Assembly (NCBI RefSeq): GCF_050920415.1
Contig: NZ_CP169309.1
DNA: 64,000 nt
Direction: 5' to 3' (one strand)
Origin: Escherichia coli
GTDB taxonomy: Bacteria > Pseudomonadota > Gammaproteobacteria > Enterobacterales > Enterobacteriaceae
Shown here: positions 5,602-39,790 of the stretch, piece by piece
How positions within the stretch are numbered: the stretch's first letter is position 1
Layout of the letters: each line of letters begins with the position of its first letter
Notes under the pieces: model-generated
Databases searched by the model: none
What the model saw: the letters and a program-made list of their open reading frames with translations, nothing else
Told to the model about the DNA's origin: nothing
Program-made: the position numbers and the translations under genes

Positions 5602-6654
5602 ATGAAAAAGACAGCTATCGCGATTGCAGTGGCACTGGCTGGTTTCGCTACCGTAGCGCAGGCCGCTCCGAAAGATAACACCTGGTACACTGGTGCTAAA
5701 CTGGGCTGGTCCCAGTACCATGACACTGGTTTCATCAACAACAATGGTCCGACCCACGAAAACCAACTGGGTGCAGGTGCTTTTGGTGGTTACCAGGTTA
5801 ACCCGTATGTTGGCTTTGAAATGGGTTACGACTGGTTAGGTCGTATGCCGTACAAAGGCGACAACATCAATGGCGCATATAAAGCTCAGGGCGTTCAACT
5901 GACCGCCAAACTGGGTTACCCAATCACTGACGATCTGGACATCTACACTCGTCTGGGTGGTATGGTATGGCGTGCAGACACCAAGGCTAACGTACCTGGT
6001 GGCGCATCCTTTAAAGACCACGATACCGGTGTTTCTCCGGTCTTCGCTGGCGGTGTTGAGTACGCGATCACTCCTGAAATCGCTACCCGTCTGGAATACC
6101 AGTGGACCAACAACATCGGTGACGCACACACCATCGGTACTCGTCCGGACAACGGCCTGCTGAGCCTGGGTGTTTCCTACCGTTTCGGTCAGGGCGAAGC
6201 AGCTCCAGTAGTTGCTCCGGCACCAGCTCCGGCACCGGAAGTACAGACCAAGCACTTCACTCTGAAGTCTGACGTTCTGTTCAACTTCAACAAAGCAACC
6301 CTGAAACCGGAAGGTCAGGCTGCTCTGGATCAGCTGTACAGCCAGCTGAGCAACCTGGATCCGAAAGATGGTTCCGTAGTTGTTCTGGGTTACACTGACC
6401 GCATCGGTTCTGACGCTTACAACCAGGGTCTGTCCGAGCGTCGTGCTCAGTCCGTTGTTGATTACCTGATCTCCAAAGGTATCCCGGCAGACAAAATCTC
6501 TGCACGTGGTATGGGTGAATCCAACCCGGTTACTGGCAACACCTGTGACAACGTGAAACAGCGTGCTGCGCTGATCGACTGCCTGGCTCCGGATCGTCGC
6601 GTAGAGATCGAAGTTAAAGGCATCAAAGACGTTGTAACTCAGCCGCAGGCTTAA
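5602..6654 (+). CDS. ompA: outer membrane protein A
   Basis: [21 protein letters not shown] signal peptide, beta-barrel region, APAPAPAP hinge, C-terminal OmpA-like domain; ORF-track start at 5530 is an in-frame extension into the 5' UTR. Confidence 0.95.
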
Positions 6655-20839: not shown

Positions 20840-20855
20840 AACGCAAACGTTTTCA
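20840..20855 (-). promoter_or_regulatory. PurR box upstream of pyrD
   Basis: aacgcaaacgttttca matches the PurR operator core ACGCAAACGTTTTC; lies about 90 bp upstream of the pyrD ATG. Confidence 0.6.
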
Positions 20856-20864
20856 GAACCTGTT

Positions 20865-21575
20865 TCAGGGCAGATCTTGCTCCTTCTTTGCACTCAAACC
20901 GCCGTAATCATTTATCGCCCGCCAGGCGACATGACACGGTGCTATTGCCTGACACCAGCTTGTCTGACGCTGGCTTTTAGGCGGTACAACTCCCGCATTA
21001 CTTAACGCTTTACCATTTACGCTCACCTGAATCAGGTTAATATAGTACGGCGTTGGGTTAGTGAGTTGCAAACCCTGCGAATTCCGTGACCAGCGTAATT
21101 GTTGATAAGCTTCCAGCGGGTCGCCCGGCAAACCTTCGGGTCGCCAGAACAGTTTAAATACCGAGCGCATCGCTACTTTTACGTTCTGATTTTCTACTTT
21201 GCCGGATGGCACGCTGGCAATGTTTAGTTCAAATAGCGTTTCGCGATCCACAGGCAACATGTCACTTTCCGTTCTCAGTAAGCGCAATGTGCCTGTAGTA
21301 CTTGGCTTCAGAAAAACAAGCGGCGGAGCGGCCAGTAATGGTACTGGCACTGTCGACGCTTCACCCCCGGCCCAACGAGTTGAGCGATTGATTTTACTGT
21401 TAATAAGCCAGGATTCCTGACTGGTATTAGTCAGTGAGATAGATATCGATTCTCTGTGTGCCGGGAAGATAAATCGCGTTCCTCCAACCACCACGCCAGC
21501 CTGCAGTTCACCCGCCACCAGCAGCGATAAAACGGCAAAAATAGAGAGCGTCAATCTGTTCCACGGATTAGTCAT
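20865..21575 (-). CDS. ycbF: putative periplasmic pilus chaperone YcbF
   Basis: PapD-like chaperone sequence; start uncertain (ATG at 21575 gives 236 aa, alternative ATG at 21602). Confidence 0.8.
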   Translation of the reverse strand: MTNPWNRLTLSIFAVLSLLVAGELQAGVVVGGTRFIFPAHRESISISLTNTSQESWLINSKINRSTRWAGGEASTVPVPLLAAPPLVFLKPSTTGTLRLLRTESDMLPVDRETLFELNIASVPSGKVENQNVKVAMRSVFKLFWRPEGLPGDPLEAYQQLRWSRNSQGLQLTNPTPYYINLIQVSVNGKALSNAGVVPPKSQRQTSWCQAIAPCHVAWRAINDYGGLSAKKEQDLP

Positions 21576-22086
21576 AATGAAGTACAAATGTCGCGCTGGC
21601 ATTTACTTTACCCGACTGCACATCGCTATTGACAGGTCGCAATTGCGCATAAAAAGTTAATGGCACCTTACCACTGTGTAAGATGTAGTCTTTACTCGCC
21701 TGGTTAAGCGGAATCAATATCTTCGCATCATCCAGAATCGCAATCGCTAACCCACTGGCGGTATCCGTACCACTTTCAATGGACAACATTTCGCTCTTCA
21801 TTCCGTCGGGTGTTCCTGAAAAAGTGACGTCAACGGTGCTGACATCTGTTCCGCAATCCTGCAAATTAATGATGAAAGATTTCTCCGGGCCATAATTCCC
21901 ATGAGAAAAACGTGTCAGTGAGACATCGCCTAACTGCACATTGCTTTGCTTGCTATCCTGTGCAAGCACGCATGTATTACGGCGAAACGATCCGCTGATG
22001 TTAACCGTGCCATCATGGGCAAACACCTCACAGCTCCCCATCCATCCCACCAGGCACAGAATCCAGATTATTCGTTTCAACGTCAC
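21568..22086 (-). CDS. ycbV: fimbrial-like protein YcbV
   Basis: about 172 aa with GTG start and signal peptide; fimbrial subunit-like. Confidence 0.8.
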   Translation of the reverse strand: MTLKRIIWILCLVGWMGSCEVFAHDGTVNISGSFRRNTCVLAQDSKQSNVQLGDVSLTRFSHGNYGPEKSFIINLQDCGTDVSTVDVTFSGTPDGMKSEMLSIESGTDTASGLAIAILDDAKILIPLNQASKDYILHSGKVPLTFYAQLRPVNSDVQSGKVNASATFVLHYD

Positions 22087-22089
22087 TCC

Positions 22090-22632
22090 TTACTGATAAA
22101 CCAGATCAAAATAGAGAACCGCCGTCGCATTACCGCCCGTTGCTCCCGCCTTAGTGGACTTATAACGAAGTTGATATTTGAGTGTGTTATCCCCCGCTTT
22201 TAAAGGTGTAAGAGGTTGGACCTGATTGAGCGGGATTTCTTGTTGACTTTGCGCATCAAGAATTTGCACAGCAATCCCCGTTGCCATACCACCACTTCCG
22301 TCTGTGTCAGTTAGTTTGAGTAGTGTCGGCGCAAGGGGGTCAGCCTCGCCGCTAAAAAGGACGTCCGCGCCAGCAATACCAGCGGCACAACCGGTGATAT
22401 CGATACTCAAATCAGCAGCAGTGCTTACGGTATTCGCGGTCTGAAAATCACTGATATTAAAATCACCAATATGAATATTTTGTAATGCGCTTTTGGTGGC
22501 GACATCACAGCCCTGATCGACCACATTACCATAAATATGCATACTGACTTGTTCAGGCCCAGCCATCCCTACATGGGTGTTAAGAAGGCTAAAGAACAAG
22601 ATAACGCACTGAGATATAGTTTTTTTCTTCAT
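22090..22632 (-). CDS. ycbU: fimbrial-like protein YcbU
   Basis: 180 aa with signal peptide; fimbrial subunit-like. Confidence 0.85.
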   Translation of the reverse strand: MKKKTISQCVILFFSLLNTHVGMAGPEQVSMHIYGNVVDQGCDVATKSALQNIHIGDFNISDFQTANTVSTAADLSIDITGCAAGIAGADVLFSGEADPLAPTLLKLTDTDGSGGMATGIAVQILDAQSQQEIPLNQVQPLTPLKAGDNTLKYQLRYKSTKAGATGGNATAVLYFDLVYQ

Positions 22633-22643
22633 ACGTTCACGCG

Positions 22644-26305
<3,662 letters not shown>

Positions 26306-26329
26306 CTCGCTCTCTTAACTGAAGACGGC

Positions 26330-27031
26330 TTACGATTTACAGTTGAGTTGCGGCGTTTCCGCCCCGTAGTCATTGATGGTTCGGTACGTTACGCGACTGT
26401 TTTGAGCACCCTTTGGCAGAGGGAATTGGTATTTATCAAATGGGGAGATCATTTGATTTTTAACTACTTTTCCACCTATTTTCAGGTCTGTCAGGGTAAT
26501 GAAATAAGGTGTTGGGTTACTGACCGTAACTATGTCAGCTGACGAAGTGCAACGCAGTTTCGCCGGAGCCTCGGCTAAGGGATACGCTAAACCTTTTGGT
26601 CGCCAGAAAAGTTTGATGACGCTTTGTGTGGCAATCTTCAGGGTATTGCCTTCTTCCCGCTTCGTTGTTGAAGGGACTGCCCGTACGCTGGTGAAGAAAA
26701 GAGTTTCTCTGTCTTTCGCCAATGGCGCACCAATGTACATAATGCGTAACAGATTCTCATTTGCCGGATTCAAGACAAATAGCGGTGGTGTTATAATAAA
26801 ATCCGCTGATTTTTTATTAACTGGTGTCATCACCCAAGACTGAATAAGATAAGAAACATCCGGACTGGTGTTACGTACACCAAGTGAAATTTGCTCTTCA
26901 CCTTCTGAATAAACAAGACGTGTTGCTGCAAGTCCAATCCCGCCTTTACCTGCCGCCCATGCGGATGAACAGCTAAGTAATATTGCTGTTAAACTTACGG
27001 TCACAATTCCCTTTGTTATGCAAGTTTTCAT
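26330..27031 (-). CDS. elfD: periplasmic fimbrial chaperone ElfD
   Basis: 233-aa PapD-like chaperone. Confidence 0.9.
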   Translation of the reverse strand: MKTCITKGIVTVSLTAILLSCSSAWAAGKGGIGLAATRLVYSEGEEQISLGVRNTSPDVSYLIQSWVMTPVNKKSADFIITPPLFVLNPANENLLRIMYIGAPLAKDRETLFFTSVRAVPSTTKREEGNTLKIATQSVIKLFWRPKGLAYPLAEAPAKLRCTSSADIVTVSNPTPYFITLTDLKIGGKVVKNQMISPFDKYQFPLPKGAQNSRVTYRTINDYGAETPQLNCKS

Positions 27032-27113
27032 ATATAGTCACTCTTAAAAAATATGAATGTCCCCTCCAGAACACTGGAGGGGGACTAATTAATAAAACAA
27101 TTAATGTTTTATA

Positions 27114-27653
27114 TTAATAATAGTTAATATGGAAGTTTGTTACCGCATTAACATTACCTGAAGTGGCTTTACCCGTAGCGATATAATCAACTTTAAAGGT
27201 CAACGTCTGATCTCCATTCTGCAACAAAATGTTCCCGGTTTCTGTGTCTGGCTTGATGGTCGTTGTGCCATCATTCATGTACATTTGCAGGGCCACGTTT
27301 GTAGCAGCATCAGAAGAGGCCTGATTAGCAAACGCTGTAATCTGCGTAGTATCCGCAGTGCCATTAAAGGTGAACGTTGCATTTTTTGTTACGGTAATAT
27401 CACAATCTGTTAATTCGATTGGCACATCAGTTTGTACCCCAGATACCTGGCCATTGCTTTGCAACTTCGTAGCACTAACATCTGGCAAAGTCACCACGGA
27501 ATCTTTCATCGCAGCTACCAGCGTACACGCTGGGGCAATGACTTTACCATTAAATGTTACTGAGCCATCCGTGATAGCATTATCATCAGCAGCCATAACA
27601 CTGGACGTTGCACATACCACAGTTATAAACGCCGTCAATACACTTTTTTTCAT
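27114..27653 (-). CDS. elfA: major fimbrial subunit ElfA
   Basis: 179 aa from MKKSVLTAFITVVCATSSVMA...; ends in a Tyr-rich C-terminus (HINYY). Confidence 0.85.
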   Translation of the reverse strand: MKKSVLTAFITVVCATSSVMAADDNAITDGSVTFNGKVIAPACTLVAAMKDSVVTLPDVSATKLQSNGQVSGVQTDVPIELTDCDITVTKNATFTFNGTADTTQITAFANQASSDAATNVALQMYMNDGTTTIKPDTETGNILLQNGDQTLTFKVDYIATGKATSGNVNAVTNFHINYY

Positions 27654-28008
27654 CGTTATCATCCTGATCTTTTCGTAAATATGATAATGCCTTTAAATGA
27701 CATTAGACTTAATAATAACAATAACTGTCCGCCATTTAAATCAAGCATACTTAATCCAATAAGTGACAAATCGTTAATTTATAGATTTCATGAATATATT
27801 CTTATTGCCTGAACGAGTAATTCATTGATTCAACATCGAATGAACATCCAATAAATAAATACACGTGATATATATCCCTCAATCCTTAGTTTATTTTTAG
27901 AAAAAGATACACAAATTTTATATTTGGCATTTTCTTGTCTTTCCGACAAACTGACAGAATTGTTATCAAAGTAAAGAATAAAAGAACAGTTGGTTATAAG
28001 GAGGGAGT
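27654..28008. promoter_or_regulatory. AT-rich divergent control region between elfA and ssuE
   Basis: about 355 bp that is visibly AT-rich with A/T tracts. Confidence 0.5.
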
Positions 28009-28584
28009 ATGCGTGTCATCACCCTGGCGGGGAGTCCTCGTTTTCCTTCTCGCTCCAGTTCTTTGCTGGAATATGCGCGGGAAAAACTGAATAACCTGGA
28101 TGTCGAGGTTTATCACTGGAATCTGCAAAACTTCGCCCCGGAGGATCTGCTCTATGCCCGTTTCGATAGTCCGGCCCTGAAAACTTTTACCGAACAGCTG
28201 CAACAGGCCGATGGGTTAATTGTCGCCACACCTGTGTATAAGGCCGCCTATTCCGGAGCGCTGAAAACCCTGCTCGATCTGCTGCCAGAACGTGCGTTGC
28301 AAGACAAAGTGGTACTGCCGCTGGCAACGGGCGGTACAGTGGCTCACCTTCTGGCGGTCGATTACGCGCTTAAACCGGTATTAAGCGCGCTGAAAGCCCA
28401 GGAGATCCTGCACGGCGTGTATGCCGATGACTCACAGGTGATTGATTACCAACATAAACCACAGTTCACGCCGAATCTACAAACCCGACTTGATGCCGCG
28501 CTCGACACCTTCTGGCAGGCGCTGCACCGCCGCGATGTCCAGGTTCCTGACCTTCTGTCTCTGCGAGGTAACGCCCATGCGTAA
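28009..28584 (+). CDS. ssuE: NAD(P)H-dependent FMN reductase SsuE
   Basis: 191 aa MRVITLAGSPRFPSRSSSLLEYAR...; SD aaggaggga upstream. Confidence 0.95.
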   Translation: MRVITLAGSPRFPSRSSSLLEYAREKLNNLDVEVYHWNLQNFAPEDLLYARFDSPALKTFTEQLQQADGLIVATPVYKAAYSGALKTLLDLLPERALQDKVVLPLATGGTVAHLLAVDYALKPVLSALKAQEILHGVYADDSQVIDYQHKPQFTPNLQTRLDAALDTFWQALHRRDVQVPDLLSLRGNAHA

Positions 28585-29536
28585 GATCATTAAACTGGCG
28601 CTGGCGGGATTGCTTAGCGTCTCTACACTCGCGATTGCCGCAGAGTCGTCTCCAGATGCGTTACGTATTGGCTATCAGAAAGGCAGTATTGGTATGGTGC
28701 TGGCAAAAAGCCACCAATTATTGGAAAAACGCTATCCGAAAACCCAAATCTCGTGGGTGGAGTTCCCCGCTGGGCCGCAAATGTTGGAAGCGTTAAACGT
28801 TGGCAGTATTGATCTCGGCAGTACGGGGGATATTCCGCCAATCTTTGCTCAGGCTGCCGGAGCTGATTTGCTGTACGTGGGCGTCGAACCGCCGAAGCCA
28901 AAAGCCGAAGTGATTCTGGTGGCAGAAAACAGTCCGATCAAAACCGTAGCCGATCTTAAAGGTCACAAAGTTGCCTTTCAGAAAGGTTCCAGCTCGCACA
29001 ATCTTTTACTACGCGCACTACGCCAGGCCGGGCTTAATTTCACGGATATCCAGCCCACTTACCTGACGCCTGCCGATGCCCGCGCCGCGTTCCAGCAAGG
29101 TAACGTCGACGCATGGGCTATCTGGGATCCCTACTACTCCGCTGCGTTATTACAGGGCGGCGTGCGGGTGCTGAAAGACGGCACCGATCTCAATCAAACT
29201 GGCTCGTTTTATCTGGCTGCCCATCCGTATGCAGAAAAAAACGGCGCATTTATTCAGGGTGTACTGGCAACCTTTAGTGAGGCCGATGCGTTAACCCGCA
29301 GCCAGCGCGAGCAAAGCATCGCTTTACTGGCAAAAACGATGGGCTTACCAACGCCGGTGATTGCCTCTTATTTAGATCATCGCCCCCCTACCACCATCAA
29401 ACCGGTTAACGCCGAGGTTGCCGCCTTACAGCAGCAAACGGCAGATCTGTTTTATGAAAACCGTCTGGTGCCGGAAAAAGTCGATATTCGCCAACGTATC
29501 TGGCAGCCCACTCAACTGGAAGGAAAACAATTATGA
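28577..29536 (+). CDS. ssuA: aliphatic sulfonate periplasmic binding protein SsuA
   Basis: 319 aa from [21 protein letters not shown]; ORF-track start at 28442 is an extension inside ssuE. Confidence 0.9.
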
Positions 29537-32450: not shown

Positions 32451-35063
32451 TCAAGCCAGTGCTTTAGTTATCTTCTCGTACAGATCTCCAGAGAGATTTT
32501 CCAGCCCTTTCAACTGCTCCAGCGCCGCGCGCATTTTCTCCTGACGTTTGGCATCGTAACGCTTCAGGCGAATCAGCGGTTCAATCAGACGTGAAGCCAC
32601 CTGCGGGTTACGGCTGTTGAGGTCGGTAAGCATTTCCACCAGGAACTGGTAACCGCTGCCATCTTCGGCATGGAACGCTGCCGGGTTGCTGCCCGCAAAT
32701 GCCCCAATCAACGAACGAATGCGGTTCGGGTTGCTCATGGTAAATGAGCGATGCTGCAACAGACCACGCACCGTCTCCAGCACATTTGCCGCCGGACTCG
32801 TGGCTTGCAGGATAAACCATTTATCCATCACCAGACCGTCCTGATGCCACTTGTCGTCGTACTCCTGCATCAGCGCGTCACGGCATGGCAGCTGTGCGGC
32901 AACCGCCGCAGAAAGCGCCGCCAGCGCATCGGTCATATTGTTTGCTTCATGGTACTGCTTGCTTACCAGCACGTCAGCCAGATGCGTTTCACCAAAAGCG
33001 AGGAAGCGCAGGCAGGCATTACGCAGAGTGCGTTTTGCAATATCTTCATGCTCAACGCGGTACTCGCTCTGATAATTTGCGTTATAAATAGCCAGCAGCT
33101 CATCCGCCAGTTCAGTCGCCAGAGTACGGGTAAGTGCTTCGCGTACTTCGGCAATAGCAATCGGGTCGATGATATCGAACAGTTCCGCCATTTCATTGAC
33201 GGATGGCAGCGTCAGAATTTCTGCCGCCAGTGCCGGGTCAATCTTCTCATCCAGCAGCACCGCGCGGAAAGCATCGGCAACGTGTGCGGGTAAAGACAAT
33301 GGTTGACCTTGCTGATGACGGGCGACGTTCAGTTTGATGTAGGTTGCCAGCAGGCTTTGTGCCGCATCCCAGCGGGAGAAATCATTACGCGCATGACGCA
33401 TCAGGAAGGTCAGTTGCTGATCGCTCCACTTATATTCCAGTTTCACTGGCGCAGAGAATTCACACAGCAGTGCGGGCACCGGCTGGAAGTAGACATTATC
33501 AAAGACAAAGGTCTGTTCCGCCTGGGTGACGTTCAGTACCGAATTCACCGGGTGACCGCCTTTCTGCAACGGGATCACTTTGCCTTCGTTGTCATACAGT
33601 TCAATGGCAAACGGAATATGCAGCGGCTGTTTTTCTGCCTGATCCGGCGTAGCAGGCGTGCGCTGGCTGATGGTCAGGGTGTACTGCTCGGTTTCCGGAT
33701 TATAGTCGTCTTTGACGGTCACAACCGGCGTACCGGACTGGCTGTACCAACGGCGGAAATGGGAGAGATCGACATTTGACGCATCTTCCATCGCCTGAAC
33801 AAAGTCGTCGCAGGTTGCCGCACTGCCATCATGGCGCTCGAAATAGAGCTGCATCCCTTTCTGGAAGTTTTCTTCGCCCAGCAGAGTGTGGATCATGCGA
33901 ATCACTTCCGCGCCCTTCTCATAAACGGTCAGGGTGTAGAAGTTGTTCATTTCAATAACCATATCCGGGCGGATCGGGTGCGCCATCGGGCTGGCGTCTT
34001 CCGCAAACTGCAATCCGCGCATGGTGCGCACGTTGTTGATACGGTTTACTGCGCGGGAACCAAGATCAGAGCTGAATTCCTGATCGCGGAAGACGGTTAA
34101 GCCTTCTTTCAGGCTGAGCTGGAACCAGTCGCGGCAGGTCACACGGTTACCGGTCCAGTTATGGAAATATTCATGACCAATAACGCGCTCAATATCGAGA
34201 TAATCTTTATCGGTCGCGGTATCGATGCGCGCCAGTACATACTTAGAGTTAAAGATGTTAAGACCTTTATTCTCCATTGCGCCCATATTGAAGAAATCCA
34301 CCGCGACTATCATATAGATGTCGAGGTCATACTCCAGACCGAAGCGTTCTTCATCCCACTTCATGGAATTTTTCAGCGAGGTCATCGCCCACGGTGCACG
34401 GTCGAGATTACCACGATCAACATACAGCTCTAGCGCCACTTCGCGACCAGAACGCGTGGTGAAGGTGTCGCGCAGTACATCAAAGTCACCTGCCACCAGC
34501 GCAAACAGGTAGCACGGTTTCGGGAACGGGTCCTGCCATTGTACCCAGTGGCGTCCGTTTTCCAGTTCGCCTTGCGCAACGCGGTTACCGTTGGAAAGCA
34601 GGAACGGGTATTTGGTTTTATCGGCAATAATTTTGGTGGTAAAACGCGCCAGCACGTCCGGGCGGTCGAGATAATACGTAATATGGCGGAAACCTTCGGC
34701 TTCACACTGGGTGCAAAGCGCATCGCCTGACTGATAAAGCCCTTCCAGCGCAGTATTCGCCGCTGGGCTAATTTCATTAACGATCTTGAGCGTAAAACGC
34801 TCCGGCAAATTACTGATGACCAGTGCGCCCTCTTCTTCTTTCCAGGCGGTCCACGGCTCATCATTAATATGAACAGAAACCAGTTTAAGATCTTCGCCAT
34901 CAAGACGAAGCGGAGCATCTGATGCACCATGACGGACAGCCTGGCTGACCGCGGTAACGACCGTCTTTTGCGCGTCCAGGTCAAAGGTCAAGTCAATATC
35001 AGTAATCTGGTAATCCGGCGCACGATAATCGTGACGGTATTTGGCTTGTGGCTGTTGAGTCAT
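32451..35063 (-). CDS. pepN: aminopeptidase N
   Basis: 870 aa with GAMEN and HEYFH zinc-binding motifs. Confidence 0.95.
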   Translation of the reverse strand: MTQQPQAKYRHDYRAPDYQITDIDLTFDLDAQKTVVTAVSQAVRHGASDAPLRLDGEDLKLVSVHINDEPWTAWKEEEGALVISNLPERFTLKIVNEISPAANTALEGLYQSGDALCTQCEAEGFRHITYYLDRPDVLARFTTKIIADKTKYPFLLSNGNRVAQGELENGRHWVQWQDPFPKPCYLFALVAGDFDVLRDTFTTRSGREVALELYVDRGNLDRAPWAMTSLKNSMKWDEERFGLEYDLDIYMIVAVDFFNMGAMENKGLNIFNSKYVLARIDTATDKDYLDIERVIGHEYFHNWTGNRVTCRDWFQLSLKEGLTVFRDQEFSSDLGSRAVNRINNVRTMRGLQFAEDASPMAHPIRPDMVIEMNNFYTLTVYEKGAEVIRMIHTLLGEENFQKGMQLYFERHDGSAATCDDFVQAMEDASNVDLSHFRRWYSQSGTPVVTVKDDYNPETEQYTLTISQRTPATPDQAEKQPLHIPFAIELYDNEGKVIPLQKGGHPVNSVLNVTQAEQTFVFDNVYFQPVPALLCEFSAPVKLEYKWSDQQLTFLMRHARNDFSRWDAAQSLLATYIKLNVARHQQGQPLSLPAHVADAFRAVLLDEKIDPALAAEILTLPSVNEMAELFDIIDPIAIAEVREALTRTLATELADELLAIYNANYQSEYRVEHEDIAKRTLRNACLRFLAFGETHLADVLVSKQYHEANNMTDALAALSAAVAAQLPCRDALMQEYDDKWHQDGLVMDKWFILQATSPAANVLETVRGLLQHRSFTMSNPNRIRSLIGAFAGSNPAAFHAEDGSGYQFLVEMLTDLNSRNPQVASRLIEPLIRLKRYDAKRQEKMRAALEQLKGLENLSGDLYEKITKALA

Positions 35064-38100: not shown

Positions 38101-38113
38101 TTTAGCGTCTTCA

Positions 38114-38142
38114 AGAGCCAGCACCCGCTGGCTCTTTTTTTA
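38114..38142 (+). terminator. rho-independent terminator of asnS
   Basis: stem agagccagcacccgctggctct followed by T7. Confidence 0.8.
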
Positions 38143-38479
38143 TCCTTTCTGTCAAGTTATCTGTTTGTTAAGTCAAGCAATCTATTTGCAACCCCGCCAT
38201 AACGATCATCCTGTTACGGAATATTACACTGCAACATTTGCGCACAAAAACTAATCCGCATTCTTATTGCGGATTAGTTTTTTCTTAGCTGATAGCACAA
38301 TTTTCATACTATTTTTTGGCGTTCTGGATGTCTGAACGAGGATTTAGTGTCAGGTCGATAAAGTTTCTATCAGAAACAAAATTTCCTTTTAGTTAATTTA
38401 AATATAAGGAAATCATATAAATAGATAAAAATTGCTGTAAATATCATCTCGCTTCTAAGGAAATATGACGGTGTTCACA

Positions 38480-38701
38480 AAGTTCCTTAAATTTTACTTT
38501 TAGTTACATATTTTTTCTTTTTGAAACCAAATCTTTATCTTTGTAGCACTTTCACGGTAGCGAAACGTTAGTTTGAATGGAAAGATGCCTGCAGACACAT
38601 AAAGACACCAAACTCTCATCAATAGTTCCGTAAATTTTTATTGACAGAACTTATTGACGGCAGTGGCAGGTGTCATAAAAAAACCATGAGGGTAATAAAT
38701 A
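38480..38701 (+). promoter_or_regulatory. ompF promoter with OmpR-binding region and about 110-nt 5' UTR (micF target)
   Basis: AT-rich tttacttttagttacatattttttctttttgaaaccaaatctttatctttgtagcactttcacgg resembles the OmpR F1-F3 boxes as I recall them; exact boundaries not verified. Confidence 0.55.
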
Positions 38702-39790
38702 ATGATGAAGCGCAATATTCTGGCAGTGATCGTCCCTGCTCTGTTAGTAGCAGGTACTGCAAACGCTGCAGAAATTTATAACAAAGATGGCAACAAAGTA
38801 GATCTGTACGGTAAAGCTGTCGGTCTGCATTATTTCTCCAAGGGTAACGGTGAAAACAGTTACGGTGGCAATGGCGACATGACCTATGCCCGTCTTGGTT
38901 TTAAAGGGGAAACTCAAATCAATTCCGATCTGACCGGTTATGGTCAGTGGGAATATAACTTCCAGGGTAACAACTCTGAAGGCGCTGACGCTCAAACTGG
39001 TAACAAAACGCGTCTGGCATTCGCGGGTCTTAAATACGCTGACGTTGGTTCTTTCGATTACGGCCGTAACTACGGTGTGGTTTATGATGCACTGGGTTAC
39101 ACCGATATGCTGCCAGAATTTGGTGGTGATACTGCATACAGCGATGACTTCTTCGTTGGTCGTGTTGGCGGCGTTGCTACCTATCGTAACTCCAACTTCT
39201 TTGGTCTGGTTGATGGCCTGAACTTCGCTGTTCAGTACCTGGGTAAAAACGAGCGTGACACTGCACGCCGCTCTAACGGCGACGGTGTTGGCGGTTCTAT
39301 CAGCTACGAATACGAAGGCTTTGGTATCGTTGGTGCTTATGGCGCCGCTGACCGTACCAACCTGCAAGAAGCTCAACCTCTTGGCAACGGTAAAAAAGCT
39401 GAACAGTGGGCTACTGGTCTGAAGTATGACGCGAACAACATCTACCTGGCAGCGAACTACGGTGAAACCCGTAACGCTACGCCGATCACTAATAAATTTA
39501 CAAACATCAGCGGCTTCGCCAACAAAACGCAAGATGTTCTGTTAGTTGCGCAATACCAGTTCGATTTCGGTCTGCGTCCGTCCATCGCTTACACCAAATC
39601 TAAAGCGAAAGACGTAGAAGATATCGGTGATGTTGATCTGGTGAACTACTTTGAAGTGGGCGCAACCTACTACTTCAACAAAAACATGTCCACCTATGTT
39701 GACTACATCATCAACCAGATCGATTCTGACAACAAACTGGGCGTAGGTTCAGACGACACCGTTGCTGTGGGTATCGTTTACCAGTTCTAA
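38702..39790 (+). CDS. ompF: outer membrane porin F
   Basis: 362 aa [22 protein letters not shown]...; C-terminal Phe. Confidence 0.95.

Follow-up and report, generated by a model that had tools for sequence, protein, structure and literature searches.

An exceptionally AT-rich and composite intergenic region between the elf fimbrial operon and ssuEADCB in Escherichia coli

In the Escherichia coli genome analysed here, the Elf/Ycb fimbrial operon and the sulfonate-utilisation operon ssuEADCB diverge from a 355-bp spacer that is composite: approximately 290 bp of it belong to the elf island, and only the last ~65 bp before ssuE are ancestral. The spacer very probably serves as a bidirectional control region of the cryptic elfADCG-ycbUVF operon and of ssuEADCB, subject to silencing by H-NS and counter-silencing by SlyA. 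For the orthologous region of E. coli K-12, silencing of the H-NS type over AT-rich DNA and a coupling of the two divergent promoters have been described before. What our analysis adds to the published K-12 picture is the composite make-up of the spacer, with the island junction falling inside the ssuE promoter region, and the loss of a deeply conserved element upstream of ssuE in elf+ E. coli. We analysed a stretch of 64 kb (hereafter, the window), and the features discussed below are collected in Table 1. The coordinates of elfA and ssuE were taken from the 100%-identical RefSeq chromosome of E. coli MFDS1022581.

Table 1. Features of the elfA–ssuE spacer and its surroundings (window coordinates)
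Feature	Position	Strand	Remarks	Basis
elf island, ycbF-ycbV-ycbU-elfG-elfC-elfD-elfA and ~290 bp of spacer	~20855–27943	-	~7.1 kb	Comparison with elf-less E. coli G749
elfA (ycbQ), major subunit gene of Elf/Ycb chaperone-usher fimbriae	27114–27653	-	42.6% GC	RefSeq annotation, identical genome
elfA/ssuE divergent intergenic region	27654–28008	.	355 bp, 28.5% GC	Gapless alignment to K-12 997513–997867
Conserved block	27655–27667		elfA Shine-Dalgarno (SD) and proposed SlyA site	Three-way comparison
TCAGGATGATAA, elfA SD region and SlyA site proposed by Curran et al.	27656–27667	-	8 bp upstream of elfA	
Conserved block	27672–27691			Three-way comparison
ssuE-ward sigma-70-like site ATGACA-17-AATAAC (K-12: AATAAT)	27697–27725	+		Prediction of PMC3946193, placed in the window
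Predicted sigma-70 elfA promoter TTTAAA-17-TATTAT	27712–27740	-	TGn before the -10 (extended -10)	Consensus scan
Conserved block	27729–27740			Three-way comparison
Overlapping pair of matches to TCGATAAATT, the high-affinity motif of H-NS	27771–27785	.	Weak enrichment	Motif scan
Conserved block	27781–27797		Adjoins the H-NS motif matches	Three-way comparison
Exact match to the IHF consensus WATCARNNNNTTR (AATCAATGAATTA)	27818–27830	-	0.1 expected in shuffles	
Conserved block AATAAATAAAT	27850–27860	.		Three-way comparison
Putative upstream activating region of ssuE in its elf+-specific form	27885–27943	+	Weak in-register similarity to the ancestral region	
Conserved blocks ATACACAAA and TTATATTTGG	27907–27915 and 27918–27927	+	Where the recognition site of the LysR-type regulator (LTTR) Cbl is expected	
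Putative ancestral ssuE core promoter and leader	27944–28008	+	Common to elf+ and elf- E. coli	Blocks conserved in 71 elf-less genomes
AATTGTTATCAA, conserved block	27958–27969	+	TATCAA (27964–27969), candidate -10 of ssuE	
Conserved block	27990–28003		Includes the ssuE SD	Three-way comparison
ssuE SD AAGGAG	27998–28003	+		
ssuE (NADPH-dependent FMN reductase), leading the ssuEADCB operon	28009–28584	+	55% GC	RefSeq annotation, identical genome

Composition and conservation of the spacer

The elfA start codon (ATG at 27653, minus strand) and the ssuE start (28009, plus strand) leave exactly 355 bp between them. A+T makes up 71.5% of this DNA, and its GC content lies far below that of the window as a whole (50.8%) and below that of either flanking gene (Table 1). 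The spacer is the AT-richest 355-bp stretch of the 64 kb: only 0.07% of all segments of this length are equally GC-poor, and every one of them overlaps it. The description of the 355-bp spacer as conspicuously AT-rich in the initial annotation is therefore accurate, and its ends are exact to the nucleotide. The sole other part of the window below 33% GC is 38133–38749. The stretch with the second-lowest GC content (38101–38702, about 30% GC) corresponds to the asnS–ompF intergenic region, which is the ompF control region, as mapped against K-12.

The spacer is collinear with the ssuE–elfA spacer of K-12 MG1655, which has the same flanking genes and the same length; the alignment contains no gaps, with substitutions at 34 of the 355 positions (90.4% identity). 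Identity is highest on the elfA side (97% over 27654–27753) and lowest over 27854–27943 (85.6%), and amounts to 87.7%, again without gaps, over 27944–28008. The elfA genes themselves are 94.6% identical at the nucleotide level. K-12 retains the proposed SlyA site, the predicted elfA promoter, the IHF consensus match and the core promoter blocks of ssuE. The substitutions include a cluster at 27875–27885, where 7 of 11 positions differ from K-12 against ~90% identity in the rest of the spacer, and a C at 27725. More broadly, the 355-bp region was matched over at least 80% of its length in 3966 of 5426 complete E. coli genomes. A more distant reference is provided by Escherichia sp. E1V33 (L075), in which ElfA is 82% and the spacer 74.5% identical to those of the window; the three-way comparison of the window, K-12 and this strain defined the conserved blocks listed as such in Table 1.

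Several observations concern the lineage that carries this DNA. It is rare: identity of at least 99% at both elfA–ssuE and pepN, as tested with 27100–28600 and 33000–34500, was found in 2 of the 5426 complete genomes (MFDS1022581 and N96). Divergence from K-12 is 2–5% over most of the window and 5–10% across elf-ssu-pepN, and ssuE of the window is at most 87–91% identical to that of any Escherichia species representative. The spacer has also been a target of insertion sequences: in E. coli ABWA45 (L004, 2576–3849), ISKpn26 lies in the spacer together with a deletion of elfA through part of ycbU, and in NZ_OU701449.1 (H6), IS1 lies inside the region that matches the spacer.

The elf island and the pyrD–ssuE arrangement

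E. coli G749 lacks the entire elf operon, and 236 bp separate its pyrD from ssuE. This 236-bp spacer occurs intact in 1353 of the 5426 complete E. coli genomes (25%), and in about a quarter of the genomes the match to the elfA–ssuE spacer is confined to its final ~62 bp; the haplotypes are about 73% elf+ and about 25% elf-. The Ycb operon has been found in phylogroups A, B1, D and E and not in B2, and the elf-less quarter fits this published absence (PMC3559732).

The two ends of the island were located by comparison with G749. On the right, K-12 and G749 are about 100% identical from ~27946 to the ssuE ATG and ~40% identical just upstream, and this drop makes the junction sharp. On the left, the homology between the window and G749 stops right after the pyrD PurR box GCAAACGTTTTC (20843–20854), and the ycbF stop codon lies 10 nt beyond the box (20843–20867 region). 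No target-site duplication is evident at either junction. The GC content of the island is 45.8%, against 51.4% for the rest of the window, and that of its ~290-bp share of the spacer is about 26%.

A pattern scan of one genome per species then yielded 120 Enterobacterales loci containing ssuE. In 70 of these loci pyrD lies 215–262 bp from ssuE, mostly at about 240–250 bp, and the DNA upstream of ssuE is 40–50% GC. Escherichia sp. E1V33 and three Pseudocitrobacter genomes were the only ones with an elf-like operon between pyrD and ssuE, the island being absent from nearly all other species recovered by the scan. Given the adjacency of pyrD and ssuE across species and the rarity of the elf-like operon, the elf-less arrangement is ancestral and the greater part of the spacer island-borne. 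The ancestral pyrD–ssuE spacer, as seen in Enterobacterales and in E. coli of the phylogroup-B2 type, is 230–260 bp long at 40–50% GC. Its final ~65 bp, with the core promoter, leader and SD of ssuE, are also present in the window, as are the pyrD promoter and PurR box on the other side of the island, but the window lacks a conserved 16-mer described below. The AT-rich DNA came in with the fimbrial island and is therefore not intrinsic to ssu control.

In the three Pseudocitrobacter spp. (L012, L025, L118), the elf-like operon occupies the same pyrD/ssuE position, ElfA is 54–56% identical, and the spacers are 346–471 bp long with 29–32% GC and keep an ancestral-like ssuE upstream block. A contig labelled Chryseobacterium sp. 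18061 (L063) also displays the enterobacterial pyrD–ssuE arrangement, with PyrD 91% identical to that of E. coli, and is probably a contamination or an assembly mislabelling.

Sequence elements on both sides of the junction

On the elfA side, TCAGGATGATAA recurs unchanged in K-12 and in Escherichia sp. E1V33, and two palindromic matches to TTAN6TAA lie at 27751–27762 and 27963–27974. The hexamers of the predicted elfA promoter and their 17-nt spacing are kept in both reference strains. Shimada et al. (2014) reported that the RpoD holoenzyme binds the K-12 spacer in vitro, and the promoter that they assigned to elfA, independently of our scan, has the same hexamers (PMC3946193). They predicted promoters in both directions, and the ssuE-ward one would lie ~290 bp away from ssuE on its upstream side, where the predicted elfA promoter on the opposite strand overlaps it; the T-to-C difference from K-12 at 27725 falls in its -10.

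The two H-NS motif matches consist of TCTATAAATT on the minus strand (27776–27785), with 1 mismatch to TCGATAAATT, and the overlapping TCGTTAATTT on the plus strand, with 2 mismatches. The spacer holds 3 such sites at up to 2 mismatches, against 1.2 ± 1.1 in shuffles, and the overlapping pair is suggestive as candidate H-NS nucleation sites. The enrichment is weak and a phased A-tract signal is absent (see below), so that any specific nucleation site here is putative. Further towards ssuE, the match to the IHF consensus is identical in K-12. Binding of IHF in the ssu promoter region was reportedly described by van der Ploeg in 1999, and we take the positions of the Cbl, CysB and IHF sites at this promoter to be those of van der Ploeg et al.

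On the ssuE side, we aligned 71 elf-less genomes, namely, 70 species representatives and E. coli G749. The alignment shows strongly conserved blocks, the most striking being a near-invariant 16-mer, C[GA]GATAAATCATTT[AC]G, which precedes the ssuE start codon by 97 nt (5880–5895 of the G749 locus, L003). The 16-mer lies at roughly -60 relative to the conserved TATCAA, where the recognition site of a LysR-type activator would sit. When the spacers of the window and of K-12 were searched with a position weight matrix (PWM), the 16-mer was absent from both, the best score being -2.1 against 25.9 for G749. The elf+ DNA in the same register (27879–27940) resembles the ancestral profile only weakly, at 40% identity; of about 590 offsets, this one ranks third by PWM score (shuffle P = 0.005). 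The segment may be either a very diverged allele that arrived with the island or a replacement. The substitution cluster at 27875–27885, where the similarity to the ancestral ssuE upstream region starts, may be a junction scar. Both 27944–28008 and 27854–27943 are orthologous, without gaps, to characterised K-12 ssu promoter DNA; Cbl activates the ssu promoter according to secondary citations, and its recognition site is predicted to lie within 27885–27943.

These observations raise the possibility, which we put forward only tentatively, that part of the DNA through which ssuE is activated from upstream was exchanged when the elf island came in, a different and AT-richer sequence now occupying this register beside H-NS-bound DNA. 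In that case, elf+ and elf- strains would control sulfonate utilisation through different cis elements, only elf+ strains would receive H-NS/SlyA input, and models of the ssu promoter built on K-12 would not hold for the ancestral arrangement.

The other Cbl-dependent operon is tauABCD. The 16-mer was considered as a general Cbl motif and was not found in the K-12 tauA upstream region. The K-12 yaiS–tauA spacer (L126, 318–932) is 615 bp long and 30% GC, is a listed promoter island and is marked as H-NS-bound; given that tauABCD too lies behind an AT-rich promoter-island spacer, both Cbl targets of K-12 (ssu and tau) adjoin H-NS-bound DNA.

Probable silencing and counter-silencing, and alternative readings

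The initial annotation had proposed an H-NS-type silenced promoter and possible shared control of the two divergent promoters, and the literature on the K-12 orthologue bears out both proposals. Both flanking operons are H-NS-associated in the ChIP studies of Grainger, Kahramanoglou and Oshima, as these are compiled in PMC5797941; the main text of Grainger 2006 does not name the elf or ssu genes, and these findings apply to K-12. Curran et al. demonstrated by EMSA that SlyA, an H-NS antagonist, binds the 355-bp K-12 fragment, and SlyA overproduction in K-12 raised ssuEADCB 3.6-fold and elfADCG-ycbUVF 2.7-fold (PMC5797941). Under laboratory conditions the elf (ycb) operon is cryptic (PMC5797941), and Quinn et al. 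2014 observed a raised OmpR ChIP signal at the ycb operon (PMC3945435). According to Korea 2010, cited in both PMC5797941 and PMC3966885, H-NS reportedly represses "several" of the cryptic fimbrial genes of the chaperone-usher type in K-12, which may include elf/ycb. Fusions of elfA and ssuE were also tested in a later reporter study.

Taken together, these data favour the reading that the spacer is a bidirectional, H-NS-silenced and SlyA-counter-silenced control region. The island-borne AT-rich DNA would carry the elfA promoter and serve as a platform for H-NS nucleation and spreading, which would keep elf silent by xenogeneic silencing. Its composition and location are those of such a system: A+T is far above that of the neighbourhood, and ~290 bp of the spacer lie inside an accessory segment. 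The H-NS-covered tract would also dampen ssu, given that it abuts the ssuE promoter and ends within ~20 bp of the -35 region. SlyA on the same fragment would counteract H-NS for both operons, perhaps together with OmpR and other factors. Induction of ssu in sulfur starvation would still proceed via its own activator, Cbl, acting just upstream of the ssuE -35, and the synthesis of Cbl would need CysB. The induction by SlyA is modest and comes from overproduction experiments, and the H-NS effect on ssu could be indirect. Given the 90% identity and the identical layout and composition, the K-12 mechanism would be expected to hold in the source strain, in which the positions of the promoters, the transcription start sites and the Cbl site are predictions.

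A different account of the silencing regards the spacer as a promoter island that traps RNA polymerase (RNAP): overlapping promoter-like sites would yield abortive products, and ternary complexes of RNAP, H-NS and DNA, rather than occlusion by H-NS, would silence the region. Panyukov and Ozoline (2013) listed the K-12 orthologue (996773_328, ssuE/elfA) among 78 "promoter islands", which the Ozoline group defines by a density of 8 or more PlatProm-predicted start points per 100 bp, sustained for 300 bp or more; this island is H-NS-bound "according to all studies" and linked to genes predicted to be foreign (PMC3661553). The binding of the RpoD holoenzyme in vitro and the promoters predicted both ways are also consistent with a trap. 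However, a sigma-70 consensus scan counted 4 promoter-like sites in the spacer, and dinucleotide-preserving shuffles gave 2.8 ± 1.8, so there is no excess over composition. We consider a trap possible, if doubtful; it is compatible with the main picture and would be a refinement of it rather than a true competitor.

It could also be argued that the AT-richness is the ordinary composition of promoter-bearing intergenic DNA and that the two promoters are independent, elf being governed by unknown factors and ssu by Cbl/CysB. Neither A/T tracts, nor TpA steps, nor promoter-like hexamers exceed what composition predicts: runs of at least four A or four T number 6, against 7.4 ± 2.3 in mononucleotide shuffles, and the 38 TpA steps, although in the top 0.2% of the window, are under the shuffle mean of 45. 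The A/T tracts to which the initial annotation had drawn attention are therefore present, but no more numerous than expected. In addition, elf-less genomes run ssuE from a spacer of 40–50% GC, so ssu has no need for AT-rich DNA, and H-NS genomic SELEX in vitro left the elfA–ssuE spacer unmarked, a mild counterpoint (PMC3946193). On the other hand, 28.5% GC is the extreme of the 64 kb, and three ChIP studies of H-NS in vivo, together with SlyA binding and the co-induction of both operons in K-12, are hard to reconcile with independent promoters of ordinary composition, which we consider improbable.

Coupling of the two promoters by intrinsic curvature from helically phased A-tracts is quite unlikely. 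Several A/T runs cluster at 27894–27933, and H-NS is classically tied to curved DNA (discussed in PMC3946193); however, the AA/TT periodicity at 10–11.5 bp in the spacer stays under the shuffle average (P = 0.90), and the signal peaks at a period of 8.5 bp. The spacer is thus genuinely and exceptionally AT-rich, and curvature, which the initial annotation had suggested computing, finds no support from phased A-tracts beyond composition.

It is very improbable that the spacer hides a gene or a fimbrial phase-variation switch: the 43-codon open reading frame at 27681–27812 (+) is intact in K-12, where its 3 internal substitutions are synonymous and fall on third codon positions, but an SD is lacking and only 15 codons remain in Escherichia sp. 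E1V33, so that it is probably not a gene; with regard to a small RNA, the K-12 spacer has no annotated feature inside it, and an Rfam search of 27000–28700 with a permissive E-value gave no match at E ≤ 1; the single GATC in the spacer leaves no pap-like pair for a pap-type Dam/Lrp switch; and, as for a fimS-type invertible element, the best inverted repeat (16 nt, 13 of 16 matches, 81% complementary) has a counterpart at least as good in 35% of shuffles and is weakened by K-12 substitutions, and the elf operon contains no recombinase gene.

Silencing by H-NS with counter-silencing by SlyA, which we thus prefer, places the spacer beside known divergent promoters controlled by these two proteins (hlyE/C0299, slyA/ydhIJK and Salmonella pagC/pagD). 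Like them, it is AT-rich, horizontally acquired DNA between divergent operons that is H-NS-bound and from which SlyA activates both ways, the data here being those of K-12 (PMC5797941); the SlyA site proposed for K-12 is present in the window, and binding itself was observed with the K-12 fragment. Unlike in those systems, ssu is an ancestral core metabolic operon with a dedicated LysR-type activator, and only its neighbour is foreign. The elfA promoter also resembles those of cryptic K-12 chaperone-usher operons (sfm, yad and yeh; F9 in UPEC) in poor laboratory expression, H-NS repression and AT-rich upstream DNA, several of these promoters also being on the promoter-island list; no invertible element or Dam/Lrp switch is evident at the elfA spacer.

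A foreign fimbrial island thus came to lie within a few tens of bp of a core metabolic promoter, silencer-binding DNA included. The natural coexistence of elf+ and elf- haplotypes in E. coli offers a comparison that may reveal how xenogeneic silencing spills onto a neighbouring housekeeping operon.
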